From NCBI GenBank assembly GCA_964187785.1, contig OZ076409.1, positions 18,602,001-18,666,000 of the forward strand: a stretch of DNA of 64,000 nucleotides. Direction: 5' to 3'. How positions within the stretch are numbered: position 1 is the stretch's first letter; each line of letters begins with the position of its first letter. The translations under genes were made by a program, and so were the position numbers. Of this stretch, positions 1-60,906 are shown one piece after another. The DNA is from Amphiscolops sp. MND2022 (lineage: Eukaryota). The notes under the pieces were generated by a model. That model searched no databases. It worked only from the letters and a program-made list of their open reading frames with translations, and was not told where the DNA came from.

Positions 1-368
1 TTATGTGGCCCAGAACGATTCCACTGGAGTCTGTGATCCCAAGTGATTGAATGGGACATTAGAGGAGCAACATTTTCTGCGAGAAAAGTTGACGATTTCA
101 AAGAAAAAGTTGGAATTTGAAAAAAAGAGTCTGCGGACAGTTGAAGAGAAAGTTCTACAATTGGATTTCACAACTTTACGAAAACTTTTTGAACCCAGAA
201 GAACTTTTTAAAGTAATACGGAAAACTTTGAACTTTCTCATTAATTAGTGCTAGATCCCTTCCCATATAAGAAATTCCCCTTTGAATTTTAAAAAAAAGA
301 GATTTTTTTATAACAAAATGCATTTCAATTCAGGATGATGAAATCAAATAAAAATTAGAGTTTCAGAC

Positions 369-637
369 TGTACTGACCTACATTAATAACCAATAGTATT
401 TAGATGTTTATAGAATGTTCTAGAATGTACATTTATTTGTTATTGAATGATTGTAAATCTCTACTCCTTCAGAGAGAGAAAACTAATAATCAGTATTCAG
501 TTGACTTCCTTTTTGTTCTACTCCTAACACCTCGGAATAGTTGTAATAAAGTAAGCTAGCTAGCCTGTCTCTCAGCCGCTTTTAGTAGTTGCGTATAAGA
601 CCATCAAAAACAATAACCAACCATTAAAAGCAGCACA
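369..637 (+). repeat. 5' LTR (269 bp)
   Basis: TGTACTGACC...GCAGCACA. Matches 18560-18828 except for 2 substitutions. AATAAA at 545-550. Confidence 0.97.
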
Positions 638-640
638 ATT

Positions 641-655
641 TGGTGCGACTTGTAA
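641..655 (+). promoter_or_regulatory. Primer-binding site (tRNA identity not determined)
   Basis: TGGTGCGACTTGT begins 3 nt after the LTR end. TGG is complementary to the tRNA CCA end. Confidence 0.8.
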
Positions 656-2564: not shown

Positions 2565-3854
2565 ATGTCCTCAACGACAACCCCTCTACCTTTCCAAACT
2601 CCCGTCATTAAAAATGCAAAAGTTGTAAAATTAGAACTAAACCCATTTCTACAAAACATTTTTTCACAATATACACAACCACTCCCATTTGAAAATGAAC
2701 CACACACAATTGAAACAACCCCTCTTATTAGAGAACATTTGGACACATACCTTTTCTATATTAGATATAAAGTTTTAACAATCACCGAAGAATACCCAAC
2801 TTTTCAAATATCCTTTCCTCAACAAAAACTTAACTCATCTCATATATACAGAAGAACAATAAACCCAATAAACCTTCAAGTTCCTAAAGTTTTTCATGCT
2901 TTTCTAAATAATGTAAAAGACCACAATTTAGCACACGAAATTCCAAAATATAGTCCAAATGCACTCGACGATCTTCAACGATACATAGACAATTTCGACG
3001 TAGAAATTATTGAAACATTGGTTAATCCTGATGACAACCCTCATCATTGGTTACAAGCTGATATATTACGAATTCAAAATTTCATCTACCACTACTTCAA
3101 AGACCTAACATTAAATGACCAAACAATTCCTCAGATCAAAGTAATATCTTTATTTCTCAGAAAATACTTCAGATTTAATTATCAACTATTATGGTCTCAA
3201 CAAGATCAATCTGCTTTTACAGCATTTCCAGATCATTTTACATTAGAAGAATGTTTACCATTCATCATCAGTGAACAAAATGAACACCCTTACTTTCATA
3301 AACCACAATTAATTACAAAACAAACCTTAGATTACATACGTTTCGATCCTCTATTAATTACAGAAAATGATCTATTCCCAGATAATAGACCTTACCACTA
3401 TCAACAAAATTCTCAAGATCAACAAAACTTACATTTTAACACTAACAATTCTACTGAAGATGATAACACCGATCAGGAAAATACAACCCAACAACAAAAT
3501 CAACCTGAAAACTATAACGATAATGAGTTTACTACCCAAGAATCTACAATCTCAACATATAATCCATCACAAACAGGGACATCAACATCAGTACATACTC
3601 ACTCCTTTAGAGTTCCCACTAGAGTTGTAAATCAAAGACAAAATATACATAGTCCTCAATCTCATTTAGATACATCTCCAAACCGTAATATAACTTTTAA
3701 CCTTCCACATACAGACGACATAAACGATGAAACCCATGATACATTACAATATAATACTATGACTACATCTAGTGCTCAGAATACTTCTGCTAATGTTGCA
3801 TCTCCAACAAGAACTACCTCTGATTCTACAAGATACATTACTCGACCTAGATAA
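2565..3854 (+). CDS. N-terminal extension of the gag-pol polyprotein (unknown globular domain plus N/Q/T-rich linker)
   Basis: 429-aa ORF in the same frame as 4215-6515. A single TAA (3852-3854) separates them and the frame is open from 3855 to 4214. Confidence 0.7.
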   Translation: MSSTTTPLPFQTPVIKNAKVVKLELNPFLQNIFSQYTQPLPFENEPHTIETTPLIREHLDTYLFYIRYKVLTITEEYPTFQISFPQQKLNSSHIYRRTINPINLQVPKVFHAFLNNVKDHNLAHEIPKYSPNALDDLQRYIDNFDVEIIETLVNPDDNPHHWLQADILRIQNFIYHYFKDLTLNDQTIPQIKVISLFLRKYFRFNYQLLWSQQDQSAFTAFPDHFTLEECLPFIISEQNEHPYFHKPQLITKQTLDYIRFDPLLITENDLFPDNRPYHYQQNSQDQQNLHFNTNNSTEDDNTDQENTTQQQNQPENYNDNEFTTQESTISTYNPSQTGTSTSVHTHSFRVPTRVVNQRQNIHSPQSHLDTSPNRNITFNLPHTDDINDETHDTLQYNTMTTSSAQNTSANVASPTRTTSDSTRYITRPR

Positions 3855-4214
3855 GATCCTCCATCAATTCCCTCCGCCTTTCGCTCAAACAGATCAACCA
3901 CTTCTAGTAACAATTTTAATGATAATCCTCAAACTTCCAACCGATATTACGATCCATTTAATTATAACTTTTATCCTCCATCAAACACAACTACCAATAC
4001 AAATATAAACCAAAACCACTCTCAAATTAATACAATTTCAACAACACAAAACCCCTTCATACAATTATCAAATACCAATACATCCCAGAATATATATTCT
4101 CAAAATCGAGGAACCTCGTGTACTTCCATTTCTTATTCTAATATTACACAGGATTCTCAAAGAAGACTTCATAATCCTCCACTTACACATATCCCAACTG
4201 ATCCTCTGTATCGA

Positions 4215-6515
4215 ATGCATCCAAATCCAAATCTTAACCCTAATCCTAACCCATTCTCACCAAATACAATCCAACATATACCTCCACCACTCACACAACA
4301 ATTAGCTTCTTCACCCCAATATCTACCAATGCCACAAGATACCTTTATAAACATGTCCGCTTCAATACCAGAACCTATGAAACCTTTTGATGGTTTGGAC
4401 CATTCTTACACCCCCGAAGAATATCTACAACAAGTCGAAGCAAGATTAACCTTCGCCATAGGTGAAGAACCTCAAAATAATCCTATAAAATACAAATCTT
4501 GGCATAATAGACGCATGGCTTACATACAATGTTCATTAATAGGAACAGCTCTCGATTGGTACACTAACCTCCATATATCGTATAAACAACAATGGAATTC
4601 CTTTGTACAACTATTCAAAAAACAATTCTCATCTCAAAAAACTGCTTACTACGCTCAAGTAGAAGCTATGTCACTCATGAAAAAGGATAATGAAACAGTT
4701 CGCCACTTCGCCCTTAGAGTACAACAATTAGGTAAAAAGGGATGGTGTAATGAAAATGCAGCTACCATAAATCTCAAAAATAATGAAATCTTTACAAAAG
4801 GGTTACCAAAGAAGTTAAAAGATTTTGCCCATAAACGACAAGTTAAACATGTATCAACATTACTTGAACCTTCAATACCATTTCATACACTTGTTAGACA
4901 TGTCGATTCTGAAGATATTGCTAATGAAAAAATCAGAACTAACGACTTAGCCCTAGAAATAAACAAAGTATCGCTTGAAGAGAATACTAACAAAAAAGAA
5001 TTGGAATACGAAGATCAGATAATGGTTACTCAAACTGGAGACCCAAATAACAAAAGCAAACCAGCGTATAGAAAATATTGTTCCTATTGTCATAAAAATA
5101 ATCATAGTATTTCAAATTGTTATCAAAAACAACGTGATGACGAATACCAGAAATACAATAACCAAAGATCACGAACTCCTCAACAATCCTTTGTACAATA
5201 TTTTCGCAGTAAACCTAATAATCCTCAGGAAAATCGAAATGAAAATACAAACTCTTATTCCTCAGATAATGATCGTAATAAATATAATCAAAACTACTAT
5301 AATGATAGATACAGAAACAATGATAGATATCGTAGCAATAGTAGAGAATATTCGCAAAACACCTATAGATCAAACTCTCGACAAAGATATTATAATCGAT
5401 CCCGAAGTCCGTATAGATCTCGATTTGATAATTATTATCAAAGAAGAACACCACCTAGATCTCCATATAGATCTCCATACAGAAATAACTCAAATTACAG
5501 ATATAATTCTCGCTCAAGATACAGATCTCGTTCTCAATCACAAGGAAACTCCTTTAAACGATATAATTATCCATATAGATCTCCATCAAGACCTAGAGAT
5601 TTTAGATCAAGATCTAGAACACCCTCAAGAAACAGACAACAAAACAGAATAAATCAAGTAGACGTTAAACCCCCAAAAGAAAATGATAGTACAAAAATTG
5701 AAATCCACACCTGTCAAATGACTGAAATAGATAATACAATCACCCCTTATAGTTGGTTTTATCCACTATATATTCACGCCTCTGAAACAAATGACAACAT
5801 ATTACCTTCAAAATTAGAAATCTTATTCCTTTTAGATACTGGAGCTTCCATATCTGTTTTGAATTTACCAACATTTCATGTAATTTCCAAACAATTAAAC
5901 ATCAATATTCTAACTAACCTCCAAAACAAAAGAGCCAAAACTCTTACAGTTGCAAACCAAACTGAAGTACCAATAATACATTATATTTCGATGACCTGTT
6001 TCACTGAAGTAAATCACAAAACACGATCCTTCAATATCGATTTTGCCGTAGCAAATATCAAATACAACATTCTTGGAACACCCTTTTTCAAAAAGCACAT
6101 CCAAAATATTGATTTTCAACAAAACATTATGACGTACACAGAACAACATCCAAAGCTTTCAACAAAAACTACATTTTCTACATTTACAGAAAAAGATTAT
6201 CCATATATTTCTTACATTTATACTATTAAATGTAAGGAACCAATTCACTTTAAACCAAGGTCAGGAAAAACCATACATTTTCCAATTAAAAACTATTCAA
6301 ATCTACATTTTGAACTCGAAGATAATACGAAGTTCTACCCAACAAACCCATATACACATTTCTTACAAAAATTTAAAAATATCTTTCATTTCTTAGATAT
6401 GATAGTCAATGAAAAAAGCAAAGACTCATGTGCAACCATAATTCAAAACTTTACATCTTACCCAGCTACATTACCACGAGGAATTATTGGATATATAGAA
6501 ATACCTATTACATAA
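4215..6515 (+). CDS. gag: Gag (capsid-like, CCHC knuckle, RS-rich region) plus aspartic protease plus possible degenerate dUTPase-like segment
   Basis: PFDG...LIGTALDWY...WNSFVQLFKKQF...ETVRHFALRV (retrotransposon gag). CSYCHKNNHSISNC knuckle. RSRSP repeats. LLDTGASISV and ILGTPF protease motifs. Confidence 0.9.
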   Translation: MHPNPNLNPNPNPFSPNTIQHIPPPLTQQLASSPQYLPMPQDTFINMSASIPEPMKPFDGLDHSYTPEEYLQQVEARLTFAIGEEPQNNPIKYKSWHNRRMAYIQCSLIGTALDWYTNLHISYKQQWNSFVQLFKKQFSSQKTAYYAQVEAMSLMKKDNETVRHFALRVQQLGKKGWCNENAATINLKNNEIFTKGLPKKLKDFAHKRQVKHVSTLLEPSIPFHTLVRHVDSEDIANEKIRTNDLALEINKVSLEENTNKKELEYEDQIMVTQTGDPNNKSKPAYRKYCSYCHKNNHSISNCYQKQRDDEYQKYNNQRSRTPQQSFVQYFRSKPNNPQENRNENTNSYSSDNDRNKYNQNYYNDRYRNNDRYRSNSREYSQNTYRSNSRQRYYNRSRSPYRSRFDNYYQRRTPPRSPYRSPYRNNSNYRYNSRSRYRSRSQSQGNSFKRYNYPYRSPSRPRDFRSRSRTPSRNRQQNRINQVDVKPPKENDSTKIEIHTCQMTEIDNTITPYSWFYPLYIHASETNDNILPSKLEILFLLDTGASISVLNLPTFHVISKQLNINILTNLQNKRAKTLTVANQTEVPIIHYISMTCFTEVNHKTRSFNIDFAVANIKYNILGTPFFKKHIQNIDFQQNIMTYTEQHPKLSTKTTFSTFTEKDYPYISYIYTIKCKEPIHFKPRSGKTIHFPIKNYSNLHFELEDNTKFYPTNPYTHFLQKFKNIFHFLDMIVNEKSKDSCATIIQNFTSYPATLPRGIIGYIEIPIT

Positions 6516-6683
6516 ACAACTCCTCCTCACTACAGAGTTAACGATGTAAATTCACTCATTCACTCTGTAATACATGCATATCACCCTGATACCACAACCC
6601 CGATTAAACAAATTCCATATACAGATATGAACTTATGTACTAGGGTAATACCACAATCCCTATTAGAAATAAACAAGAATATA

Positions 6684-8375
6684 ACGACAAAACACTTCAA
6701 CTTCCTATACCTTCTGTTACTGGAAACCTTCGACCTTCAGATAAAATTCGAAAAGATTTCCCTCCATTACCCTATTCTACAGAAAACCAACAATTCATAA
6801 AGAAGTTCAATTTCGAATACTCAGATTTAACCGATACAGAATATGTAAATCTCTGCAATATTCTAATTAACAACCAAAATTGTTACGCCAAACATAAAAA
6901 CGACGTAGGAAAGATTTCTACTCCTTTTCGAATTAGAATAAAAGATAATTGTAAACTTCACACACAAAGACCTTCCAAAGTACCTATCCACTATAGAGAT
7001 AGACTAAATAAACTTTTACTAGAACTCGAAAAATACAACATCATAAAACAAATTGGTTCGACAACAGATGAAAAACATACTATTGGAACAACATTTTTAA
7101 ACCCTTTAATTATTATCCCAAAAGGAGACGCAATAAAAGTTGTTTTAGACGCAAGACATCTAAACTCAAACACTAACCAAGAACTTGAATCTTGGCCTAT
7201 TGAACCTTTAGCTCCTCAATTAGCTAGAGCAAATAAAAAATACAAATCAACTATTGATCTAATGTATGCATATGCTCATACACCATTAGATGAAGAAACA
7301 ATTAAACTTACAGGATTTTCATCCGGTGACAAATTATACGCCTTTATCCGTGGATTTTACGGATTAAAAGGACTTCCAAACATCTTCACAAAACAAATGT
7401 CAACTTTCTTTAGATCACTTATAGACAAACGTTCTGCGTTAGTTTATATAGATGATATTCTATTACCCGCAAATGAAAAACAAGAAATGTTTGAACTTAT
7501 AAAAGAATTACATACAATAGCATCTCGAGAAAATCTCAAACTTGCACATGAAAAATCGTTCTACATGTTACTCAAAGTAAAATTCCTTGGACATGGAATT
7601 GGTAACAACACAATTAAACCAATTCCATCCAAAATTGAAGCTATTAAAAGAATCCCATCACCAAAAGAAAAGAAAGATGTTATGCAATTTCTTGGCAGTG
7701 TTAACTTTTATTCAAAATTCATTGAAAAACTTCATATATACCTTAAACCATTGTATACATTACTACATGATGATGTTAAATTTCAATGGACACCTGAATT
7801 AGAAAAACTATTTCATAATGTTAAAAACGCAATGACAGCAGACACTGAATTAACAATACCCAACACCACGCATCCATTTTTTATAACAGTAGATGCTTCG
7901 TTAGTAGGTTTAGGCGCAGTCTTATTCCAAATGAACGAAGAAAATAAGATGAAAGTAATCTCTTATAACTCCAGAATTCTCAATACACAAGAACAAAAAC
8001 TTTCAACTTTAGACAGAGAACTTCTTGCAATAGTTTACGCATTACAAATATATGGATTTTTTTATCATTGGATCTCCTCATCCTATATATCTCTTCACAG
8101 ATCACAAGCCTTTACTACATTGTTTCGCAAAGAAAGGAAATCTTAGTCCTAGATTCTATAGAGCACAAATGCAATTAACCAAATTCTCCAAATTAAAAAT
8201 CATTCATACCCCTGGAAAAAATTTAACTGTAGCAGATATGCTTTCAAGAACCTCTACAAAAGAACAGCTACAAGTACACCAATTACGACACAAACAATTA
8301 CCACCTCAAATAGATTTCTCTTTCATGAAAGATATTCAACTCAAACCAGTACATTATTTAGTAATGAAGAAATAA
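6684..8375 (+). pseudogene. pol: Reverse transcriptase and RNase H (frameshifted)
   Basis: LNPLIIIPK..VVLDARHLN..IDLMYAY..FYGLKGLP..VYIDDILL..FLGH. RNase H motifs TVDASLVGLGAVL, DRELLAI, FTDHKPL, ADMLSR. Frameshifts near 6680, 8060 and 8365. Confidence 0.93.
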
Positions 8376-10587
8376 AATATAATCAAAAGAATGATTGTCA
8401 TCCTATCCTTGCTGACTACGGAGACGACCAATTCTACATCCGTATGAATAACAAAGGAGAAGATATACATATAAAGCCTTTAGATTCCTTCTCTTTTCAA
8501 TCTATTGTTCCATTTTAATCAAAATATAAGCAGCATACAAAAAAACAAGCAAAATCTCTTTTACAACAATCGACAATTCTTAATGATACTGACATTCTTA
8601 GTGATGAAGATGAAATAACACCATCAAATACTATCCAACAACAAAACTCGAACATAGTAAAAGAATACACCCTTGCTATACAATATCCTACCAAATCTGA
8701 CTATTGTAGACAACAAGTTCCATTTTTTGATCCATCCTTTTTCAAATACAAAAAATATTTTAATTACTTCTTCCTACCAGAAGATACACAAATAACCATT
8801 GAAACAATAAAAGCTCAACAAAATCAAGATACTGTTTTACAAAAGGTTTACCAATGGATACTTAATAATGAAAGACCCTTTCAAATAGACCCAACAATTG
8901 CAGCTAACTCTTTCTTATTAGTATATTACAAACTCTTCAACCAATTATATATTAATCATGATACAAAAATTATTCACATAGATTATCCTAATCTTCACGA
9001 TTCAAACCCGAATCAAAGAGACAAAATATGTCTACCATTTAAACTTTTCCACACAGCTTTTAACAAACTTCATGCTCATGGACATTCAGGAATAAAAATA
9101 TCCATCAAAGCTTTCAACCAATTTTACTTCATACCGTACCTGAATAAATGGATGTCAATATTCATCCATGATTGCATTGAATGCCAACAAAATAAACATA
9201 TTAACCAAAAATTACAAACTGCATCTATACAAACCTTCTCAGAAAATGCTTCATATTTTAATTACCGAATATCAATGGATACAAAAGGACCTATAAACCC
9301 ACCATCAAATCAAAATTCATACATTCACGTTATAGTAGACGCTTTTAGTCACTTTGTAGTAACAGTACCCATAAAACAAAATAATGCTCAAAACGCTGTT
9401 AACTCATTACTACATCATTGGATAACAAAATTTGGACCTCCTGTATACCTAGTTACCGACCGTGGAACAGAATATATTAATTCAGAATTTGCAAATCTTT
9501 GTACCACAATGGGAATTAGACATTCACCAAGAACTCCTTATGCACCATGGACAAATGGTTTAGTTGAAAATCAAAACAGAAATCTTGGAACTCATCTCAG
9601 ACTTTTCTTACATAACACTCCAGAAAATTGGTCAACTCAAGTCCATATGTATGCTTATGCACATAATTCCGACCACTTTCTGAATTAAACTTATCTCCAT
9701 ATGAAATAGTATTCCATACTATACCCAGAATTCCAATCAACTTTGAACTCAATCTCCAAAGAGATACATATAGAAATTGTACTTCTCAATATTGTCAAGA
9801 ATTACCACTTCATACACACTATGACAAATCAAATCTAAACCCTTTCTTTCATAAAATTTTATCTAAACCAATTCCACAATGGATCTTAGCTACTGAAACT
9901 GCTATGATACAGATATACCATACGGTATATGAAAACACAAAAAGAAAGATTAATTCCTATGCTTATTTTAACAAAACATATCACAATACAAGACCCTTAG
10001 ATATTGGTACATTTGTACTAAAAAGAAATTTTCTCCATGTTCATTTTTCCGATAAATTAAAACGTCTCAGAATTGGCCCATTCAAAATTATTAACAAACT
10101 CTCCGATATAACATATGAAATTGTTAATCAAGATGGTTATACATCGCACATACATAGAAATCTTTTAATTCCTTATTATCCAAAAGAACCAGTTATTTTC
10201 CCTTTCATACAACAATATAACCCTCATTTATTTAATGAATGTCATTCAAATACAAACGATCAAATAATTAACTCTGATGAAGACAAATTTACAGACGAAG
10301 AACAATTTCCTTCCACAACATTTAATAAAGAAACGGATATACCATCCACGATTGACTTACAACCAGAACGATTTAACCAAAATTCTTCATTTCCATATAA
10401 ACAAAAAGAACAAATTCCTCAAAATACCTCCCTGAATAACCAATCAGATATTCATGATTATGATAATTTTATTAATCCCCGAAGACACTCCTATAATAGA
10501 TACAATTTCCGCCCACAAACAAGAAAAGACTACCGACTCTTCCTTGGTGAAAAGGATATATTTTCAATTTCTCAAAAATCCTGCTGA
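8376..10587 (+). pseudogene. pol: Integrase (HHCC, DDE, GPY/F) with linker, disrupted
   Basis: LHAHGHSG...CIECQ zinc finger. SMDTKGP, TDRGTEY and NGLVE catalytic motifs. IGPFKII GPY/F module. In-frame TAA at 8516-8518 and frameshift near 9668. Confidence 0.92.
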
Positions 10588-10756: not shown

Positions 10757-12225
10757 CACAACGATTTCAAAATTGATAGACATATTCACTCACCATCATC
10801 AACTACAACTAACTCTTCTTCTAGTTCAACACATTCACTCCAAAGATTACCTGAATATACAGCATATTTAAAGTCAGATACAGACATACTGGATTCCTCA
10901 TCCTCAAATCCCAGTCCATCCGCTCCATATACTCCTGATAGAGTACCAACAACACCCACTAATACACCTATATCCCAAACTCAACCACAAATATTAACAA
11001 CTCAATCACAACCGATTTCACGAAATCTAACATTTTTAGAAACAAATTCACCACTTTCTGACTCTAATGATGAAACATCTACAATACCAAATACACAAGA
11101 TACTTCAGATATTTTGAATATACCTCCTCTTCCACCGATTACTACCACTCGTTCTATTCATATCCCTGATCCTAGCTCAGTCCTACAATACATAAATTCT
11201 TGTCCACACAAAGTACCAACTGCAACGAAAACAAAAAGAAAAACTCCTTTACCTACATTACCACAAAATCTTGATTTACCATCATCAAGTAATATCCCAA
11301 TAACATTTTTACCAGAACCTTCATTAAAATCACCAACGAAAAAATCACAAAAATACCCAACTCCTTCACCATCGGAACTAAGTTCCTTCACATTTTCTCA
11401 AATATATCCCAAGCTTGAATTACAACGTGTACATTCAACAACTACCTCTTATTAACAGATTTATATCATAAAGATAAAGACTCTGACTCAACTGCTAGTA
11501 CTAGAGTACCAAGACATAATTATAACCTTCGATCTCAACAACAAAGAGATTCTCAAGAATTACAATCCTTAACTAGTTCAAGTACAAACTCAAGACTACT
11601 TCGACAACACGCCCAACCCAGATTGGACACTTCTTCTCTTTCCTCATCTCAGCCCACTATACCATCTTCTCTATCACTACCATTTCAAATCACATCAGGA
11701 TTTGAAACAGTCTCTCTTCTTTCTGAAGAGCCAGCAACTATATCAGATAGCGCAGCTAATTTTTCACGAGTTTACTCACCTAGTTCAATAGCATCAAACT
11801 CCTCTATACAATTACCTGAATATTTTTTAGAAGAATTCTCAAGACCTCCATCGCCAAATCCTCACGAATATCCTATTCGTGTTAACTCAAAACTTGTTCG
11901 CACGCTTAACGAAGATCCTCGATACACGGTATTACCTGCAAGATTTATAAACAATAGTTCACTCTCAACTCAAAGAAAACAAAGAGAACTACGAAGATTA
12001 CAAGAACAACAACTCACATTAAAATTTGAAGTAGAAGTCACATTCAACTCGTTAGGACCTCATCCATTCTCTCTTTCAACAAGAGTAGCACATAAAACAA
12101 CCCCATCACCATTCATTGTTACCTCCATTTCCTACCTTTGTGACGCAGATATACCTGAGATTAGAACAGGACATATAAACTTTTTAAATCCCTACTCAGG
12201 ACTCAATTATAGATCAATATTTTAA
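10757..12225 (+). pseudogene. Accessory ORF between pol and env: S/T/P-rich with small globular C-terminus (frameshift near 11450)
   Basis: Frame open 10757-11455 (contains PSAPY), then continues in another frame (RHNYNLRS...) into ORF 11623-12225. No clear start codon. Confidence 0.6.
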
Positions 12226-12227
12226 CC

Positions 12228-14804
12228 ATGAACCAAATCACCTTTACCTTTCATTTAATATATATAATACAAGTTGTTAAATACACGTATATAATAAATA
12301 TAGTTCACTCTTTAGTTCACCCTTCAACTGTTCCCAAAGTTGACACCACCAATTCCGAAAATCATATTTCAGACCAAGATCCTAACATTTTAAACTTAAT
12401 GGTATCTCATTATGATTGTGCAAAACAAAATAACTTACGACAATTCAGTTTATTAAATGTAGAACCAGGTAAACAAGCACCCTCAGATATACAACACACA
12501 AAAACCCAAGCAACAGTTTACGTTAGAGCAAAAGCCAAAAGAATAAAAGCCTTTAAATGTGAAGCATATATAAAGACTGAGAAAGTCTGGTGTTCACAAA
12601 CATTCACATCTAGTAGACGATATGATCGTTTACAATGGGGACAACACACATTAGAACTTCCAAAAATATTGGACCCTATTGAATGCAAAAATATGATCAG
12701 ATATTTAAACGCGACTGATAGCGAAGAATTAAACAACTACAATATACGAAGCTCTTTCTCATTGTTCGACGATAGTAATTATCAAAACACAATTGAACGA
12801 ATTCAGACACCATTTAGAGTAAAAAAACTAAATACATGGCATATTGGAACCTTCGTATTTGACGAAAATTATCCTGATTGGATAGTTAATGTTACACAAA
12901 ATACATACTCTAGATGTCGATCAGACCGCGAACATTTAATTACCCGACAAAGTTGGAAACTTAGAATTGTTAACACCGCAATAGATTATGACGATAAAAA
13001 CAATCAATTAATACATGACGGACACATATTACCATGTTATCATTCAGACGGATTTTGTAAACCAACGACCAAAACTCCATATACATTAACATGGTTTGAT
13101 GAAAAATTTTGCCTCATATTTCAACTTCAAGAATTCATTGGTAGAATGACACGAATCAAAGATAGATATTGGATAGAAACCGATACCTTCATTGAAACTT
13201 CAAACATCACACAAAAACTTCAAACCGAAGGAATACAAGGAACAAAATACCCTAATATAAAAACACCACAATCAAAAGTAAGCAATCCAAGCCTTTCTCG
13301 ATTTGAAATATACCCAATTGCACAAACCTTCTGTGGAAAACCTGAACCATCATTTTCAACACAATATGATGACATCTTTGTTACATACTTAGATGGTTTT
13401 GATATGAACACAGGATTACCAAAACCACACTCAATAATTGACCAAACAATTAGTGGAAATATAAAATATGATGATTCAAACAAAAGGTATATATTCCCTG
13501 CATTGAATATATCAAACAATTTCGCCACTTTAGACTATGATGCCCACATTAATACAAAGATTGATTTCACAATAAATCATGTATTTAAATCCATGACAGT
13601 ACAAGAAATAAACACTCTTCATACAATATGTGAACTAGAAAGAACTCAACTGTTAACAATACTAGCAATGTCAGTTAAAAATCCCCAATTAGCCGGTTTT
13701 CTTTTAACTGGAAATCGTAGTAACTTTCTCTACGTTGAAGGATCTACAGCATGGCTGTATGATTGCCCTCATTTTATATCACCACTATACAAGGCAGATA
13801 AATGCTTTGATAGAATTCCTATACACTACAGAGAAACGATAATGTATGTTGACCCAATAACAAGACAAACTTTTGACTACGCAACACCAATTGAATGTGG
13901 AAATAACCCACAAAATATAATAGAATTAGATCCAGATTCCAACGACGGAGATTTTTATGTGTTAACACCAGAACCACTCAAACGAGAAGCACCACAAATG
14001 TTTAAACCTACCCAAATTAAAACAACAATCACTCCTAATACATTTACCGCCCAAGATGCCGGTATATACTCAAATGCAGAATTAGATCAATTCTGGAATA
14101 GAGTATTATTTGCTAAACATTCAGACACAACTCTTCAATAACTTGGAAAATCATTAAGCTATGATTTCATTTCAATGCATAATGAAAAACACTCATACTC
14201 AGGACATAATCCCTATAATCATTTAAGGATTGGAGTACATGACCACTTGTTAAATCTTTTACCACTTTTTAACCCTGACTGGTTCAGTCAAGCATTCATT
14301 AATTTCTTTGGATACCCATGTTATGTTTTAACCCAATGTGGAATTTATTTTTCAACATTCCTTTTCATTAGAGAAGTTTTAACATTTATACTCAAATTCT
14401 ACAGAACAATTAGCATAAAATATAATCTCCAAAGCAACATTTCCATTTTGAGTTCAATAGCCCATGGATTTTTTAATATAGTTACATCGGAAATGGTAAC
14501 CGATTTAAATAATACAGGAAAACGAAAACGGATATACACTAAACACAAAATTACAACAAGTGAAAATGATAATATCCTATTGCCGGAAAAAGAATTAAAC
14601 AATAAACGAAGACACTCTGATACTGACTCCCCTTATTTACCTCCTAAATATTCCAGTAAGAACTCAACATTTCAATCACCGCAAAAGACACACCCAACTA
14701 ATGTAAACGATATTAATTCTCAGGACTATGACCCAAAAATGTCAAATGTAATAGCTGTACCGGAAAGTCCTGCTAAAGTCTTTATAAAATTCAATCCCTC
14801 CTAG
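12228..14804 (+). CDS. env: Envelope glycoprotein, class III fusogen-like (herpes gB / chuvirus G type); one internal TAA at 14139-14141
   Basis: Hydrophobic N-terminus. YDC..FSLLNVE..FKC..WC..EC cysteine pattern. ICELERTQLLTILAMSVKNPQLAGFLLTGNRSNFLYVEGSTAWLYDC resembles the gB central helix region. CFDRIPIHY..YVDPITRQ..IEC. Several NxS/T sites. C-terminal TM segment in the in-frame ORF 14175-14804. Confidence 0.85.
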
Positions 14805-15220: not shown

Positions 15221-16512
15221 ATGGAATCCTTGTCCGAAATTGATGTAGTTAACTCTAATCCCTCTGAATTGCTTGCAACCCCTTTGAATATAACTATTCA
15301 ACAAGATGTTACCGAAGATAATAACTCTTCCTCCAACTCTCAAGACCCTATAGAAAATATCCCTATTGAACAAGTAGATCATGTTAACACAAGATCTCAA
15401 AAAGAAAGTACCCAGATATAACCGCAGATAAACCTTTTATGGAATCTGGCGCTTGCCCTCCTTTCATAAAACCAATTAAACAAGATGAAGATAGAGATTG
15501 TGAATTAGTTCCTATTCTCTCGTCGAAACGATTCACATTTCAATCTCAGTTAACTTCGTTATACATGATTCCAACAAAATACAAATTCATCATCAGAGAA
15601 TTTAAAAATGATTATCATACATCAATTGCTTCAAAACTGATTACCCCATATGATTGGTGGTTAAACAATAAAGTGAAAATTTTCTCACTTCAATACAACT
15701 TCCTCAGACCATCTCCATATGATCTTCGAACAGAAGAAAATGATGCAAATTTTTTGCCATATCAAATCAAAAAGGCCCACCATATGACTTATCAAAAGTT
15801 CCTTCAATATAAAGAGCCCGATAATTATATATTCTTCAACTCCAAATATACATCGCCATTCAGTTGCAACTCAGAATATTTAATAGATCATACCACAACA
15901 AAAGGAAAACTTAGAAATTATGACCCGCTGAAACAAAGTTTTCTCTTCCTTCCAAATGATAACCCAAAAAGACCAATCATTGTTCCACAAGAATACCTCA
16001 TTCTAAACGACGATTCGTTACTACAAGAAGATATACCTCAACATATATCTGATCCTCTTCCTCCACTTCAACAAATAGCCTCTCAACCATTGGGAGACTG
16101 TGAAAAGTCTTATTTCCACGCAATGATCAAAAAGGGATATTCAAATAATGAATTAATTTTCATTATTTCCCACCTACTTTCACTTATTACAAATGGAAAT
16201 CACAAAGAAAATAAAAAGGCAAAACAAGAATCGCCTATGAAAACCAAAAATGATATTCCTCAACCACAAAGTTTTCGCCCAACAGGTGAATTACAGAAAT
16301 ATACAGAAATTCTGAATATCATAAAACCGTATCATCATCCAAACCGAGATATTCTTATAACAATCGCTGAAATCGTAAATACCCTTGAACAAGCTCGAAG
16401 CATAATACAAAATATCGTATTTGATACGACAAGAATTAGCCAATCAGCTTTGTGCATTCGCACATCCTTAGACGAATTCAACTACACTATTGAAAAAATG
16501 CATCGATCTTAA
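15221..16512 (+). CDS. Accessory ORF 3' of env, unknown function (~430 aa if the frameshift near 15415 is repaired; intact part 15439-16512)
   Basis: 66-aa and 357-aa ORFs are adjacent in different frames, have element-like composition and lie inside the LTRs. No recognisable motif. Confidence 0.65.
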
Positions 16513-16848: not shown

Positions 16849-17505
16849 ATGCAATAAAAAAATGTCAACTACGAAATTCTATTTTCAAAGGAACTTTATT
16901 GTAAACAAACTAATCTATTTTAGGTGAATATCGTCACAACTGCTTCTTCAGCATTCCTTCCTACTCTCAGGTCACCCATTCAAGAAGAATTCCGAAGTAT
17001 CTTCTACAGCTTTCAACGAAATTTTCTCATTCTTCAATATGACACCTATCCACTCTGGCGACATTGACTGCCCGATAGCTCCTTTTCTTTCAATCTCTTC
17101 AGCTCGATTGCGATCCTTGATCCTGAAAAAGCATTTAACGACATTAAATGCGCAGCTTCGAACAGAAAAAAAGGCAGACCCAGATCTTACAAGATGATAT
17201 TGCCTAATATGTTCCAAATAACAAGAATAAATTTCGACCAATATCTCCATATTCATAAACATCCTGACACTTATTCAACTCGAAAGGATGCCACTACCCA
17301 AACAGAACCTACTACCATCAAACCCAAGCGTTTAATACGAACTCTATCCAATAGAATGCATTCCGAAATGGAAAAACAACGTCTAAATTCATATTGGCCC
17401 TCAGATGACAATGATGACACTGACGAAGACCTTCAAAAAGATCCCCCAGAAGCACTTATAGATGATAATTACCCACACAAAACATATACTTACGTTTCCT
17501 TCTAA
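16849..17505 (+). pseudogene. Second degenerate accessory ORF 3' of env
   Basis: ATG 16849 is in frame with ORF 17194-17505, with three in-frame stops. Contains RKDATTQTE and an acidic tail. Confidence 0.45.
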
Positions 17506-18559: not shown

Positions 18560-18828
18560 TGTACTGACCTACATTAATAACCAATAGTATTTATATGTTT
18601 ATAGAATGTTCTAGAATGTACATTTATTTGTTATTGAATGATTGTAAATCTCTACTCCTTCAGAGAGAGAAAACTAATAATCAGTATTCAGTTGACTTCC
18701 TTTTTGTTCTACTCCTAACACCTCGGAATAGTTGTAATAAAGTAAGCTAGCTAGCCTGTCTCTCAGCTGCTTTTAGTAGTTGCGTATAAGACCATCAAAA
18801 ACAATAACCAACCATTAAAAGCAGCACA
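18560..18828 (+). repeat. 3' LTR (269 bp)
   Basis: Copy of 369-637. AATAAA at 18736-18741. Followed by AGAC TSD. Confidence 0.97.
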
Positions 18829-18859
18829 AGACTCTGATTAACTAAATAGTAAAAAAAGT

Positions 18860-19705
18860 TCACTTTTGTTTTGTTAGCAGATCTGCCGGCATTCTATCTG
18901 TAGGTAAAAATTCCAGTAAAATTTCGCCTTTTTCCGTTTTTTCCTGAAGGAAGCAAGTTTTTATGGCAAAATGTTTTGTCTTATTATGATGGATTGAGTG
19001 TTTGCTGAGAGCTATGCATGCTTGATTGTCAACAAACACGCTCACAGGTTTCACCACAACAACTCCAAGCTCACTCAATACACCACAGACATACGACAAC
19101 TCTTGTACAGCGACAGTGCAAGCATTGACTTCAGCTTCGGCTGTTGACAGAGCAACACTAGCTTGCAATTTATTGGTCCAACACACACAACCACTCACAC
19201 TGTTCAATTTCACACACACGCCACTTGTACTCTTTCTCGATGTCAACTCACCGGCCCAATCTGCGTCAGAGAAAGCACAAACAGACACGCCACCTTCACA
19301 CATTCTAAACACGAGTTCATGTTGCTTGGTTCCTTTCAAATACCTCAAAATTCGTTTTCCGGCCATCCAATGTTCTTTTGATGGATGCTCTAGGAAACTA
19401 CTTAAGACGTGAGAGGCATGAGCAATGTCAGGACGACTGCTAAGTGCTAAGTAGTTCAAACTACCAACTAATCCTCTATAGTCTCGTCGTTCCATTATGC
19501 TTTGTTCGTCATAATCTTGTTCTTTGTTACTTTCTCGTTCGAACTTGGTATTTTCTGGTAACGGATTTTGTACTGGTTTACACTCTTCCATGTTGTAGCG
19601 TCTCAAAAGATCGTCAATATACTTCTCCTGACTCACTGCGATTTCGCTCTCTCTAACGTCTATCTTCATCCCAAGGAACCAATGTAGTGAACTACAGTCA
19701 CTCAC
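18860..19705 (-). CDS. pol: Copia RT C-terminus and RNase H (3'-truncated)
   Basis: YRGLVGSLNYL..RPDI; SDADWAG; STAEAE; DNQACI; ADLLTK. Confidence 0.92.
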   Translation of the reverse strand: MSDCSSLHWFLGMKIDVRESEIAVSQEKYIDDLLRRYNMEECKPVQNPLPENTKFERESNKEQDYDEQSIMERRDYRGLVGSLNYLALSSRPDIAHASHVLSSFLEHPSKEHWMAGKRILRYLKGTKQHELVFRMCEGGVSVCAFSDADWAGELTSRKSTSGVCVKLNSVSGCVCWTNKLQASVALSTAEAEVNACTVAVQELSYVCGVLSELGVVVVKPVSVFVDNQACIALSKHSIHHNKTKHFAIKTCFLQEKTEKGEILLEFLPTDRMPADLLTKQK

Positions 19706-20760
19706 TTCAAACTGTTCTTTTTTTTCTTCTCAAACCATCCAACAAAAGCATCCTGTCGTCCCCAATAAAGCATATCATCCACCCACACACACACAACACA
19801 CACCTCATCACCAGTACCTCTCACAAACAAGCATTTGTCGTTTATACATGCTCGGAATCCGATTCTTTCTAGGAACATCTTTAGTGTTAAATACCAGTTG
19901 CGCCCAGACTGTTTAAGTCCGTATAAACTCTTTCGCAACTTACAGTACAATTGGTTACCTTCGTTATTTTTGACTTCAAAGCCTTCCGGTTGTTCCATGT
20001 AGATGTTCTCTTCTATGTCTGCATTCAAATATGCTGTTTTGATGTCCATCTGTCTTGGTTTTACTTGATACTGCGCTGCTAGCTTCAACAGAATCCGTAT
20101 TGTAGACATTCTCACAGTTGGTGAATAGGTTTCGAAGAAATCGCGACCCTCAACTTGTGCAAAACCTTTCGCAACAAATCTGGCTTTGCACTTCTTGAAA
20201 CTTCCGTCTTCGTTGTGTTTCATCGCAAAATGCCATTTTCCTCTCAATGGCTTAGTTCCTTTCGGTAGTTCCTCCAATGTCCAAACTTGGTTACTACACA
20301 AAGAATCGAATTCAGTTTTCATTGCTTCCTTCCACTGAGGATCACTCAAGGCTTCTTGAACGGAACATGGTAGCTTAATCTGACTTGGTTCCTTCTTTGC
20401 ATTGAATGACACTTCATCGCCCGCAACATCTGTGCCATGAAGTTGATTGGATGGGATGTTGTTCACACTTGGTTGACCTTCCTTGGTTCCAAAGTAAAAC
20501 TCATCCTCATTAAACCTCACACTTCTTGTTTTGATCTTCTTGGTTGCGCCGTTTTCCTCTAATCCAACTATGTACGTTTTGCTGTTCTCTGCAAAACCTA
20601 GAAAGACTCCCACTTTTGCTCTCTCGTCGAAATTTCCTCTGAATTGCTTCTCCATAAAACTGTAAACTTTGCAGCCAAACACTTTTATAAAGCTTAAATT
20701 TGGCCTTTCACCGTATATCCTCGCATATGGAGTTTGCTTGGTTGCTGAGTGTAGGAGCAA
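19702..20760 (-). CDS. pol: Copia integrase C-terminal SH3-like region and reverse transcriptase
   Basis: KVFGCKVY..GVFLGF; EALSDPQWKEAMKTE, KARFVAKGF, MDIKTAYLNA, LYGLKQSGRNW, VWVDDML. Frameshifted relative to both neighbours. Confidence 0.93.
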   Translation of the reverse strand: MLLHSATKQTPYARIYGERPNLSFIKVFGCKVYSFMEKQFRGNFDERAKVGVFLGFAENSKTYIVGLEENGATKKIKTRSVRFNEDEFYFGTKEGQPSVNNIPSNQLHGTDVAGDEVSFNAKKEPSQIKLPCSVQEALSDPQWKEAMKTEFDSLCSNQVWTLEELPKGTKPLRGKWHFAMKHNEDGSFKKCKARFVAKGFAQVEGRDFFETYSPTVRMSTIRILLKLAAQYQVKPRQMDIKTAYLNADIEENIYMEQPEGFEVKNNEGNQLYCKLRKSLYGLKQSGRNWYLTLKMFLERIGFRACINDKCLFVRGTGDEVCVVCVWVDDMLYWGRQDAFVGWFEKKKKNSLK

Positions 20761-21875
20761 GTTTTGATGTAAAATGCATAGTTCAGTGCGTATGTCCAAT
20801 ATTCTTTGTCCATGTTGGCCCGATGGATCATACACCTGGCCATTCCGCAAATTGTTCCCCACACTCTCTCAATTTTCCCATTTTCCTCCGGTGTATACGG
20901 TGCAGGTGTTTCCTGTCTGATGCCTTTGTTCCTACAAAATGTCTTCATGTCACCGCCAACAAACTCCTTTGCACAGTCGGTTACAAGAACTCTTGGTTTC
21001 CCTATATCTGCACAGTACTGCTCAACTTTCGCTGCTACTTCGTCACGGCTTTTCATGAAATAAACCTTACCATAGCGACTGTAATTATCTTGGAATCCTA
21101 TGGCGTACTTATGACCATCCACCGAAACTGGTGACACTGGGCCTAGGACGTCACAATGTACGTAGTCCAATGGCTCTTTGGCCCGTGTAATGCAGTCTTT
21201 GGGTACAGGTCTTCTTTTGGCTGTGTTAACCTCACACACTTCACACACGAACACGTCATTTTCACACACATCCATTCCAACAACATGTTCCTTTAACTTT
21301 TTCAAATCCTCCCAGTTATGACCCAGTCGGTCATGCCACTTACTTAGTTTATTGGAGAGGCATGTCTCATGCTTGGTTACTCTCAAATCAGGGACTATTC
21401 TCCAAACGAACAAATTATTTTCTTGCTTTATGTGAAACTTGGATCCATCAGACGTCGTTAAGGAGTTTTCCTCTCCGAAACGAATCTCCACCCCGACTTT
21501 CTTCAGTCGCGCTACGGACACTAGGTTTCTGTCGTACGCCGGCACGTACAACGCATCCCGCAACTCCACTCTTCTCGCGTTACCTTCGCTATCCTTTACA
21601 CAGAAGACAGCACAGCCTTTTCCGCACAGTTTCGACTCCGTCTTGTTGGCACATCCAACTACTCCTTCTATCTCCTCATTCAGTTCGGCAAACAGTTTCC
21701 TGTCTTTTATCATGTGGTTCGTGCAACCACTATCTACCACCAGGTCATTATTACTCACTGCAATATCTTCATTTGCAAAGAATGAAAATTGGACCTCCTC
21801 ATTTTTGCCTGAGTCATCCTGTTGCACGGCTAATCTTGCCTCATCGGTTCCTTGGTTGCTTTGGTTTCCTCTCAA
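20694..21875 (-). CDS. pol: Copia protease, GAG-pre-integrase and integrase core
   Basis: VVDSGCTNHM; WHDRLGH..CEVC; VHCDVLGP, TDCAKEF, PEENGKIER. Confidence 0.93.
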   Translation of the reverse strand: MRGNQSNQGTDEARLAVQQDDSGKNEEVQFSFFANEDIAVSNNDLVVDSGCTNHMIKDRKLFAELNEEIEGVVGCANKTESKLCGKGCAVFCVKDSEGNARRVELRDALYVPAYDRNLVSVARLKKVGVEIRFGEENSLTTSDGSKFHIKQENNLFVWRIVPDLRVTKHETCLSNKLSKWHDRLGHNWEDLKKLKEHVVGMDVCENDVFVCEVCEVNTAKRRPVPKDCITRAKEPLDYVHCDVLGPVSPVSVDGHKYAIGFQDNYSRYGKVYFMKSRDEVAAKVEQYCADIGKPRVLVTDCAKEFVGGDMKTFCRNKGIRQETPAPYTPEENGKIERVWGTICGMARCMIHRANMDKEYWTYALNYAFYIKTCSYTQQPSKLHMRGYTVKGQI

Positions 21876-22524
21876 TTTGAAACAGGTACTTAAGGTGTGT
21901 CCTTTTTTTCTTGCAGTGGTTACAAAATCTTTCCGGCATTCGATGATTACTATCGCGGGAAGTCACTTGGGACGGGCAAAACTTCGCTATATGTCCTGGT
22001 TTACTGCATTTGAAACAGACGCGAGGTTGTCCAAAACTCTTAGTTTGCTTGGTCTCTGTACGTGCTTTTTGTGTACAATCAAATGATTTGTGACCTGGTC
22101 CTCCACAGAGATGACATTTAACTTCGTTACGACTGAGGAACGTGGTTTCTTCTGCTCTTGGTTTCCTTCGGTCGGTGTCGAAATTTATCAGATCCCTCTT
22201 TACCTCGTCCAAACTTTTTGTTTCCTTGGTAAACTTTACGAGGGCACAAAATGTCTCGAAATCCTTGGGAAGACCTTTTAACAATATTGATATAAACATT
22301 TGCTCGCTTAGCGCTTCGTCCACCTGACGTAGGTTGTATTGTAGGTCTTCAGCTCTGGTAATGTAATCAACAATTGTTTCATTTTGATCTTTTCTAAGTG
22401 AGGTCAGTTTCTCAATCAGCTGCTGCAACCGATGACGCTCAAAACTCTTAAAACGGTCGCACAAGGCATTCCACGCAGCTGGACCATCACCTTTGTAACT
22501 TCTTACGAACAACAGAGACTTTTT
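21841..22524 (-). pseudogene. gag: Copia gag (5'-truncated) with three CCHC knuckles
   Basis: AWNALCDRF..ETIVDYITRA..LLKGLPKDF. Knuckles CHLCGGPGHKSFDC and CFKCSKPGHIAKFC. The third knuckle is broken by a frameshift in an A-run near 21905. Confidence 0.9.
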
Positions 22525-23261
22525 ATACCAAGTTCGAACGAGAAAGTAACAAAGAACAAGATTATTACGAACAAAGCATAATGGAACGACGAGACTATAG
22601 AGGATTAGTTGGTAGTTTGAACTACTTAGCACTTAGCAGTCGTCCTGACATTGCTCATGCCTCTCACGTCTTAAGTAGTTTCCTAGAGCATTCATCAAAA
22701 GAACATTGGATGGCCGGAAAACGAATTTTGAGGTATTTGAAAGGAACCAAGCAACATGAACTCGTGTTTAGAATGTGTGAAGGTGGCGTGTCTGTTTGTG
22801 CTTTCTCTGACGCAGATTGGGCCGGTGAGTTGACATCGAGAAAGAGTACAAGTGGCGTGTGTGTGAAATTGAACAGTGTGAGTGGTTGTGTGTGTTGGAC
22901 CAGTAAATTGCAAGCTAGTGTTGCTCTGTCAACAGCCGAAGCTGAAGTCAATGCTTGCACTGTTGCTGTACAAGAGTTGTCGTATGTCTGTGGTGTATTG
23001 AGTGAGCTTGGAGTTGTTGTGGTGAAACCTGTGAGCGTGTTTGTTGACAATCAAGCATGCATAGCTCTAAGCAAACACTCAATCCATCATAACAAGACAA
23101 AACATTTTGCCATAAAAACTTGCTTCCTTCAGGAAAAAACGGAAAAAGGCGAAATTTTACTGGAATTTTTACCTACAGATAGAATGCCGGCAGATCTGCT
23201 AACAAAACTTTTAGGGGAAATAAAAACAGAACTTTTCACTAAAATTTTGCTGTGCCCTTGA
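22525..23261 (+). CDS. pol: Inverted duplicate of Copia RT-end/RNase H with the natural C-terminus
   Basis: 22525-23208 is the reverse complement of 18868-19551 (684 bp, about 6 mismatches). Continues to ...LLGEIKTELFTKILLCP* and the PPT. Confidence 0.92.

Positions 23262-45330: not shown

Positions 45331-60906
<15,576 letters not shown>

Follow-up and report, generated by a model that had tools for sequence, protein, structure and literature searches.

Genes for envelope proteins (env) of the herpes simplex virus glycoprotein B type (HSV/gB-type) have been reported in Ty3/Gypsy retroelements across animals, and the accessible text of that report states that the assembly, exit and entry of such elements are unknown (Chary and Hayashi, eLife 2026, PMC13524379). 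As described there, the main pipeline capped the pol-env distance at 1 kb and the total length at 10 kb, with some groups annotated by hand from wider flanks. Chuvirus glycoprotein (G) genes have been reported in mosquito BEL/Pao elements, a precedent named in an earlier note on our sequence (Dezordi 2020, PMC7642597), and further background on env capture and on extra open reading frames (ORFs) is available in Kojima (PMC12440569) and Rodriguez et al. (PMC5408684). Here we analyze a 64,000-nt stretch of DNA from Amphiscolops sp. MND2022 (assembly GCA_964187785.1, contig OZ076409.1, positions 18,602,001 to 18,666,000 of the forward strand), hereafter the window, which contains an 18,460-bp Ty3/Gypsy element with five ORFs, bounded by long terminal repeats (LTRs) and a 4-bp target duplication. 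With a Ty3/Gypsy gag-pol and a gB-type ENV within LTRs, the element falls under the operational definition of an HSV/gB-type errantivirus. The copy in the window is a broken one, and on the whole we think it probable that working copies of this 18.5-kb Ty3/Gypsy element use a class III Env to fuse enveloped particles into other cells. We compare it below with sister copies of its own family (A) and with five further families (B to F) whose env is of the same type. The env gene has the following parts, numbered from the first base of the window:

12228-14804, plus strand: env, gene for a class III (chuvirus-G/gB-type) fusion glycoprotein with one stop inside, assigned from profile and predicted fold
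12228-12317, plus strand: signal-like N-terminus of Env, approximate extent, from hydropathy
12468-12470, plus strand: codon of residue 81, a conserved Cys position kept in 14/14 relatives, Gly (GGT) in the window copy
13536-13670, plus strand: predicted long central helix of Env, residues 437-481 (45 residues), including C468 and the CELER string, from AlphaFold2 secondary structure (block pLDDT 67-97)
14139-14141, plus strand: premature stop at codon 638, which removes the transmembrane anchor and tail, from translation
14337-14393, plus strand: transmembrane segment of Env, residues 704-722 (KD19 1.63)

The env frame runs for 858 codons with a single internal stop, at a codon that is a sense codon in 8 of 11 sister loci and was not readable with the pattern used in the other three. 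Hydropathy peaks at both ends of the protein in 7/7 sequences, modest ones in families A-D, give Env a type I topology of signal, ectodomain, transmembrane segment and tail. The N-terminal hydrophobic stretch is itself modest, with a KD19 of 1.45 in the window copy and a KD15 of 1.5-2.0 in one copy each of seven families or subfamilies. There are eight NxS/T sequons, five of which precede the transmembrane segment, and the tail that follows it has about 136 residues. Translation and hydropathy thus return the whole frame anatomy given in the earlier note, from the 858 codons and the signal-like N-terminus to the sequons, transmembrane segment, tail and lone TAA. That note had also read an expected Cys as GGT, and residue 81 is indeed Gly here; the conserved residue is retained at this position in all 20 copy look-ups, covering 18 distinct sister copies. 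Of the 14 Cys columns in the ectodomain, each is retained by 13-14 of the 14 relatives compared (21-98% identity), and the window copy has 13 of them. These columns point to a conserved disulfide scaffold with putative pairings. The Cys spacing near the N-terminus and in the helix resembles that of the bridges of HSV-1 gB.

Env is almost certainly a class III fusogen, judging from its profile, its predicted fold and the lack of a furin site (RxK/RR was found in 0/7 family representatives and nowhere in the Env of the window copy), all of which favor this class over the F-type. The only Pfam family matched is Monjiviricetes_fusion, PF24664 (E 7.5e-24, 84 bits with a cut-off of 27), which is also found in the env of families B, D, E and F (E 2e-23 to 1e-39), and the Atlas assignment, from a source that carries its own caveats, agrees (0.93). 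AlphaFold2 was run on the natural sequence between residue 51 and the stop, with an alignment of 100 relatives, and gave a model with a pLDDT of 77.8 and a pTM of 0.63. When this model was compared with the PDB by Foldseek, herpes gB filled 34/34 best rows (top E 2.1e-12, TM ~0.3). Against BFVD the G proteins of chu-like, xinmo- and qin-like viruses lead (E 9e-28 to 2e-23, TM 0.42-0.52), with the best gB far behind chu-like G (E 3.5e-12), and on the predicted model the protein is nearer chuvirus/xinmovirus-like G than herpes gB. VIA-align gave a Z of 11.3 for gB (418 aligned, root-mean-square deviation (rmsd) 15.2) and of 7.7 for the G of Mokola and rabies, both lyssaviruses. As to the bipartite internal fusion loops expected of the class, the predicted secondary structure shows loops close to C122 and C230, which cap two long pairs of strands. 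The earlier note had argued for class III rather than a baculovirus-F-type protein, had proposed a Foldseek comparison with known fusogens, and had likened the CELER string to the gB central helix. These suggestions fared well: herpes gB, chu-like G and lyssavirus G are all matched by the model, and the string falls in the predicted 45-residue helix. Searches of PDB sequences with the protein and with a 101-row profile gave no matches, so the class III assignment rests on Pfam and fold. Weighing against a closer kinship with gB are the rmsd of 15-19 A and the TM of ~0.3, because of which only a domain-level likeness to gB can be claimed.

How well has this gene been kept? A 160-aa env probe against the genome gave 150/150 scored matches at 98-100% identity, hence at least 150, of which about 60, counted by eye, lie in open frames of 863-873 codons. 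The nine A copies that were fetched sort into two subfamilies, with 97% and 85-89% identity to the window copy. The ratio of nonsynonymous to synonymous change (dN/dS) between these subfamilies is 0.08 for env, 0.045 for the env ectodomain, 0.11 for ORFx (the frame between pol and env, described below), 0.07 for ORF4 and 0.02 for the reverse transcriptase (RT), and because it is low we regard env as a working gene of the family. Env is very probably functional in family A on this sequence evidence. Two features of the comparison count against this: the ratios come from our own Nei-Gojobori script with one copy per subfamily, and the copies were chosen as best matches, which favors unbroken ones.

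Relatives of env at 51-60% identity are also multicopy in the genome (50/50 scored per search). Families B, C and D (two copies each) are 17.7-18.8 kb long, with near-identical LTRs and the same core of the primer-binding site (PBS) as A, and the layout gag-pol / ORFx / env / ORF4 is common to A-D; among B-D, an ORF5 of at least 170 codons is present in B and D. In family E (12.2 kb) and family F (17.9-18.2 kb) the env type is the same, and no ORF in them matches the ORFx profile. The RT tree and the env tree share one branching pattern, (A, (B,C), D) vs (E,F), with the env tree, which has seven rows and none omitted, less sure in its support than the RT tree because of long D, E and F branches. 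Since the two trees agree across six families, env is an old resident and no fresh capture. The earlier note had proposed that this Gypsy lineage captured a class III fusogen. The Gypsy carrier and the class III assignment stand, but a capture peculiar to the lineage does not, as the association is old and the env is shared by six families. Among metagenome contigs there were 151 pattern matches, none of which was confirmed.

The pol-env gap of 1.3-1.6 kb holds a conserved frame, ORFx, that the earlier note had missed, as it had the breaks in every ORF other than env, where it had seen the single stop. The features that bear on ORFx and its expression are:

10772-10888, plus strand: stretch of 117 nt upstream of the CUG, almost unchanged from one A subfamily to the other (4 base differences, 1 synonymous, vs ORFx dS 0.40)
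10889-12225, plus strand: ORFx, AUG-less, S/T/P-rich, ~445 aa, likely CUG-initiated (dN/dS 0.11, CTG conservation, AUG depletion), with a frameshift near 11450 here
11803-12222, plus strand: predicted folded domain at the C-terminus of ORFx, with two helices followed by beta strands (36-49% identity across families; model pLDDT 70.5)

In representatives of four families the frame is 418-490 codons long and without Met. Near its 5' end all four have an in-frame A-n-n-CTG-GAT, which would give products of 410-446 aa; in the window the CTG stands at 10889 with A at -3 and G at +4. CTG makes up only 1.1-2.5% of Leu codons in A-D elements, and here it is retained in the window, in 9/9 A copies and in 10/10 B, C and D loci. 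As a forward test, a divergent D subfamily (80-82% identical) was fetched afterwards; the CTG is kept in 9/9, and similarity to D begins just upstream of it. AUGs in any frame between the CUG and the env AUG number 2, 1, 2, 3 and 1, vs 7.6-11.4 expected (P <= 0.003, 300 dinucleotide shuffles), and equal lengths of the gag extension contain 18, 23, 9, 14 and 9; no such depletion is seen in env or ORF4. Taken together, these patterns make it likely that ORFx starts at the CUG. Readthrough or frameshifting from pol into ORFx is excluded by the 60-330 bases with in-frame stops that lie between them. We also considered the missing in-frame Met as proof of a non-AUG start, and dropped it as weak alone, the gag extension being likewise Met-poor.

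Several observations pull the other way. A stricter shuffle of synonymous codons gives weaker AUG depletion (P 0.024, 0.011, 0.060, 0.100 and 0.37-0.40), and the P values are not independent because the four families share ancestry. The Met-poor gag extension has 1-3 Met per 430 codons. One to three out-of-frame AUGs persist, opening upstream ORFs of 1-17 aa, and an in-frame Met occurs in the ORFx of one B copy. The 117-nt stretch upstream of the CUG opens with a strong-context ATT and is likely a cis-element or an AUU-started extension giving a longer isoform, to go by its near-invariance. The C-terminal conserved domain of ORFx, about 130 aa, has no Pfam family above cut-off (55 members), no BFVD match at E <= 0.001, and a best Z of 3.4 among 48,161 chains; since the model is middling, these searches do not establish a new fold.

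Short motifs resembling retroviral late domains occur in ORFx and in the tail of Env, in the case of PPxY of a kind that links to Nedd4:

10916-10927, plus strand: PSAP at ORFx residue 10, TSG101-type late-domain-like (3/4 families)
11402-11416, plus strand: [LI]YPxL in ORFx, ALIX-type late-domain-like (aligned 8/8)
11521-11532, plus strand: YNLR in ORFx, as in a foamy virus Gag nucleosome-binding peptide (aligned 8/8, by conservation count)
14640-14651, plus strand: PPxY in the cytoplasmic tail of Env, Nedd4-type late-domain-like (5/5 A-D sequences)

The three ORFx motifs lie in its disordered region, which is poorly conserved. PSAP lies at residue 9-10 in 3/4 families, that is in 4/8 sequences (shuffle P 0.05-0.07 each). 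The [LI]YPxL motif is aligned in 8/8 ORFx sequences (shuffle P 0.02-0.03 each), and PPxY, present in 5/5 env tails of A-D, is found in 0/2 of E and F (shuffle P 0.03-0.19). A late-domain-like motif near the C-terminus is also carried by 7/14 distant env relatives. PSAP and YPXnL recruit TSG101 and ALIX and, with PPxY, make up the retroviral late domains (PMC12789967, PMC3705263), and a Gag peptide of prototype foamy virus with a YNLR core has been used in nucleosome-binding assays (PMC12125541), as far as the accessible parts of these sources go. Because LYPxL and PSAP in ORFx and PPxY in the Env tail match retroviral late domains, our preferred, if tentative, suggestion is that ORFx may be a budding adaptor co-expressed with Env, to which we give a little less than an even chance. 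Some facts speak against it. Short late-domain motifs arise easily in proline-rich sequence, family D has no PSAP, and PPxY and LYPxL occur in gag-pol too. Moreover, since families E and F carry env without ORFx, ORFx is not needed by env-bearing elements generally.

How might a working copy use these parts? We speculate that a subgenomic RNA, either spliced or from an internal promoter, would start upstream of the CUG. Acceptor-like sites are present upstream of ORFx, where D has TTTTCAG and C a CAG preceded by a pyrimidine run, and a consensus splice donor occurs only in the A leader and in none of B, C and D. A minority of ribosomes would initiate ORFx at the CUG while the rest would scan ~1.2-1.3 kb to the env AUG, and such leaky scanning is fairly probable given the arrangement of start codons. 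Env would be an uncleaved, disulfide-stabilized trimer with internal fusion loops, and ORFx and the Env tail would recruit ALIX, TSG101 and Nedd4-type ligases such that capsids bud with Env. The particles could then pass from somatic cells into the germ line in the manner of Drosophila gypsy, that element being the model for soma-to-germline transfer. We lean towards cell-to-cell infection by the family, and purifying selection together with the late-domain motifs makes infectivity of the lineage plausible. More doubtful is the full picture that one might draw, of a clade of giant five-gene, still-spreading invertebrate endogenous retroviruses in which budding signals have moved from Gag to a CUG-initiated protein, made from one message with a class III Env at a ratio set by leaky scanning.

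Other routes to the two proteins deserve to be weighed against leaky scanning. Env might be made by termination-reinitiation once ORFx has been read, or its message might be a separate spliced RNA. The env AUG lies 1-2 bases after the ORFx stop in A863 and D and 29 in A870, AG dinucleotides shortly upstream of some env AUGs would fit a spliced env RNA, and stop-start coupling is known from caliciviruses and non-LTR retrotransposons (PMC5902531, in the part accessible). In B and C, however, the env AUG is 58 bases inside ORFx, such that the stop-start spacing is not conserved, and neither reinitiation nor a separate RNA requires AUG depletion over 1.2-1.3 kb; we consider this pair of routes improbable. 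Less probable still is that ORFx gains an AUG from a spliced upstream exon, with the CTG an ordinary conserved leucine. The acceptor-like sites above ORFx in C and D would suit such an exon, as would the conserved open frame of 44-53 codons above the CTG in family A. But a rare codon has been fixed here while synonymous sites diverged, the open frame above it ranges from 6 to 53 codons across families, similarity in the D subfamily starts just above the CTG, and the confinement of a consensus donor to the A leader argues against a spliced AUG exon. Initiation of ORFx at the CUG followed by leaky scanning to env therefore remains the reading we prefer.

The roles of the two proteins can be questioned as well. 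As the chief alternative to a budding adaptor, ORFx could be a nuclear accessory protein, a chromatin tether or RNA-export factor, with its late-domain-like motifs incidental. YNLR, kept in 8/8, is the core of the foamy virus peptide used in the nucleosome assay (PMC12125541), and Cer1 is described, in what is accessible of the source, as encoding a nuclear export protein, CERV. Yet LYPxL is conserved as well as YNLR is, the spacing between the CUG and PSAP is constant in three families, and co-translation with env would suit a role in assembly, and so we regard a purely nuclear ORFx as rather unlikely. Budding and chromatin roles may both hold, by analogy with p12 of murine leukemia virus, which combines the two. 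It is also conceivable, if unlikely, that Env is functional in cell-cell fusion or intracellular budding and no free infectious particle is made. Its transmembrane segment is only moderately hydrophobic, and the transmission route of all gB-type elements is stated as unknown in the accessible text of PMC13524379; against this, the late-domain-like motifs in ORFx, in the env tail and in the 7/14 distant env relatives suggest budding away from the cytosol. Finally, env could be a recently inserted chuvirus glycoprotein that is a mere passenger, as might be thought from its best structural matches, chuvirus-like G proteins, and from the captures reported in mosquito BEL/Pao elements (PMC7642597). 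That idea is effectively refuted: env is only 10-15% identical to those viral G proteins, its dN/dS of 0.045-0.08 argues against a passenger, and it occupies the same position, with matching RT and env trees, in six families.

The rest of the element, as it lies in the window, comprises:

365-368, plus strand: left target-site duplication, 4 bp, with identical bases after the 3' LTR (18829-18832)
369-637, plus strand: 5' LTR, TG...CA, 269 bp, direct repeat of 18560-18828 with 2 differences
641-649, plus strand: primer-binding-site-like TGGTGCGAC, core common to all six families
2565-10587, plus strand: gag-pol, ~2,650 codons as one frame in some sister copies, from Pfam and the RT match
15221-16512, plus strand: ORF4, ~435-aa orphan protein (dN/dS 0.07), with a frameshift near 15400 here
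17039-17505, plus strand: ORF5, ~160 aa, frameshifted near 17170-17190 here, from frame comparison among copies
18560-18828, plus strand: 3' LTR, direct repeat of 369-637
18829-18832, plus strand: right target-site duplication, matching 365-368

Gag-pol is ordered as a 430-aa N-terminal extension, Gag, a protease motif (DTG), RT, RNase H and integrase, with the Pol domains in PR-RT-RH-IN order by Pfam, the protease being recognized only as the DTG motif. The RT and integrase domains are of Ty3/Gypsy type, not BEL/Pao, and the best PDB matches of the RT are to Ty3 RT (4OL8; E 9e-37, vs 2e-18 for foamy virus Pol). In this copy gag-pol is interrupted by stops at 3852, 6513 and 8516 and by frameshifts near 6670, 8140-8160 and 9670. 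All five ORFs are thus broken, so the window copy is dead and cannot itself carry out any of the steps proposed above; it is dead yet young. ORF4 of family A is 35-43% identical to those of B, C and D and has no Pfam or Atlas match, and the best 120 of its 339 homologues are all close and none is named. For ORF5, no similarity among A, B and D was detectable.

We note some further features of these elements and their surroundings. The Gag extension (2565-3850, ~430 aa) belongs to no known family and is conserved in A-D, at 37-52% identity between families and a dN/dS of 0.22. At 5023-5652 the Arg/Ser/Tyr-rich region of Gag is overlapped by a frame of ~200-246 codons, which most A copies keep open, as do B, C and D; repetitive composition may have produced this frame as a by-product. 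The C-terminus of integrase (10500-10587) ends in Y-N/K-L/F-R in A-D, resembling the YNLR of ORFx. At 641-652 the PBS core TGGTGCGAC in B and C resembles the tRNA-Arg(UCG) site of the eLife table plus two extra bases, and a search for a tRNA matching the PBS gave four pattern matches, none with a tRNA at the match. In family E (L064:7796-9316) the 12.2-kb element has, after env, a single ORF of 507 codons that matches no Pfam family. Family F (L073:7428-8944, the layout repeated in L070) has LTRs of 1.6-1.7 kb and ~3 kb from pol to env. Its env is followed by a frame of 193 codons, S/P/T-rich and Met-less, in which two in-frame CTG-GA codons stand in A-3/G+4 context. Overlapping this frame is an ORF of 331 codons that has a MATH/TRAF domain (E 2.7e-9) along with a weak PAM2 motif. 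The two are possibly a second CUG/leaky-scanning pair, with a captured TRAF-like gene. Adjoining the 3' LTR, a broken Ty1/Copia element occupies 18860-23261 on the minus strand, its RT/RNase H end duplicated as a 684-nt inverted repeat at 99%. Beyond it are four near-identical tandem units at 26144-29913 (spacing 1098, 939 and 939 bp); diverged relatives occur near 37.6-38.2 and 52.7-53.2 kb. The intervals 48296-49233 and 55399-55996 hold two 15-nt tandem arrays, inverted and ~770 nt apart, and a long (AG)n microsatellite.

What does this element add to those already described? A class III env in Ty3/Gypsy is already published, and env alone is one more member of the group. What is likely new is the layout gag-pol / ORFx / env / ORF4 / ORF5 in four families at 18 kb, with a likely CUG-initiated, late-domain-bearing ORF before env; no paper describing such an arrangement was found in open-access text. 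With the assembly, exit and entry of gB-type retroelements stated as unknown, an abundant and recently spreading clade offers conserved handles on them: the CUG start, the AUG-poor track, motifs of the type used with the endosomal sorting complexes required for transport (ESCRT), and two orphan proteins. If our reading is true, it would bring non-AUG polycistronic translation and accessory-gene complexity to animal Ty3/Gypsy elements, in the form of a Ty3/Gypsy virus of the "complex" kind, whose matrix/p6-like accessory protein is not seen whole by gene callers that rely on AUG. Size-limited, AUG-based searches may, if this is confirmed, undercount such elements.

Among known systems, Drosophila gypsy and ZAM are likewise env-bearing Ty3/Gypsy elements, errantiviruses with three ORFs and a class I F-type env having a furin site and fusion peptide; here, in contrast, RxK/RR is lacking in 7/7. 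Herpesvirus gB and rhabdovirus G share with the predicted Env a long central helix and a domain-level fold (Z 11.3 and 7.7), but identity is ~10%, the rmsd 15 A, no PDB sequence matches, and no gH/gL-like partners were seen. Env shares PF24664 and its best structural matches with chuvirus/xinmovirus G and with Anakin, a BEL/Pao element (Dezordi 2020, PMC7642597, in its accessible part), whereas the carrier here is Ty3/Gypsy rather than BEL/Pao, identity to viral G is 10-15% and the capture is not recent. For expression, the nearest parallel is rice tungro bacilliform virus, in which ORFs I-III are translated by leaky scanning past a non-AUG start (PMC5902531, in the part accessible): there too a non-AUG start is followed by ~1 kb nearly free of AUGs and then by a downstream AUG ORF. 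That virus, unlike ORFx/env, is a plant pararetrovirus that uses an AUU start on pregenomic RNA after shunting, and we offer it as an analogy of working without homology. Retroviral late domains, such as PTAP/LYPXnL in p6 of human immunodeficiency virus and PPxY in p2b of Rous sarcoma virus (RSV), lie in Gag according to the accessible part of PMC12789967; the same three motif types appear to be present here, but in a separate ORF and in the Env tail. Closest of all are the elements of Chary and Hayashi. The accessible text of PMC13524379 does not mention splicing, non-AUG starts or accessory ORFs, its longer version using "accessory ORF" once, and the PBS TGGTGCGAC is found in 0/1,512 rows of its table, 361 of which have no LTR/PBS call. 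As far as that text goes, our element resembles them in its Ty3/Gypsy pol, in gag-pol-env order, in being multicopy with env diverging along with pol, and in a gB-type ectodomain between signal and transmembrane segment, with conserved cysteines and no requirement for a furin site; it departs from them in a length of 18-19 kb, in its five ORFs, and in a pol-env gap of 1.3-1.6 kb that holds a conserved AUG-less ORF.

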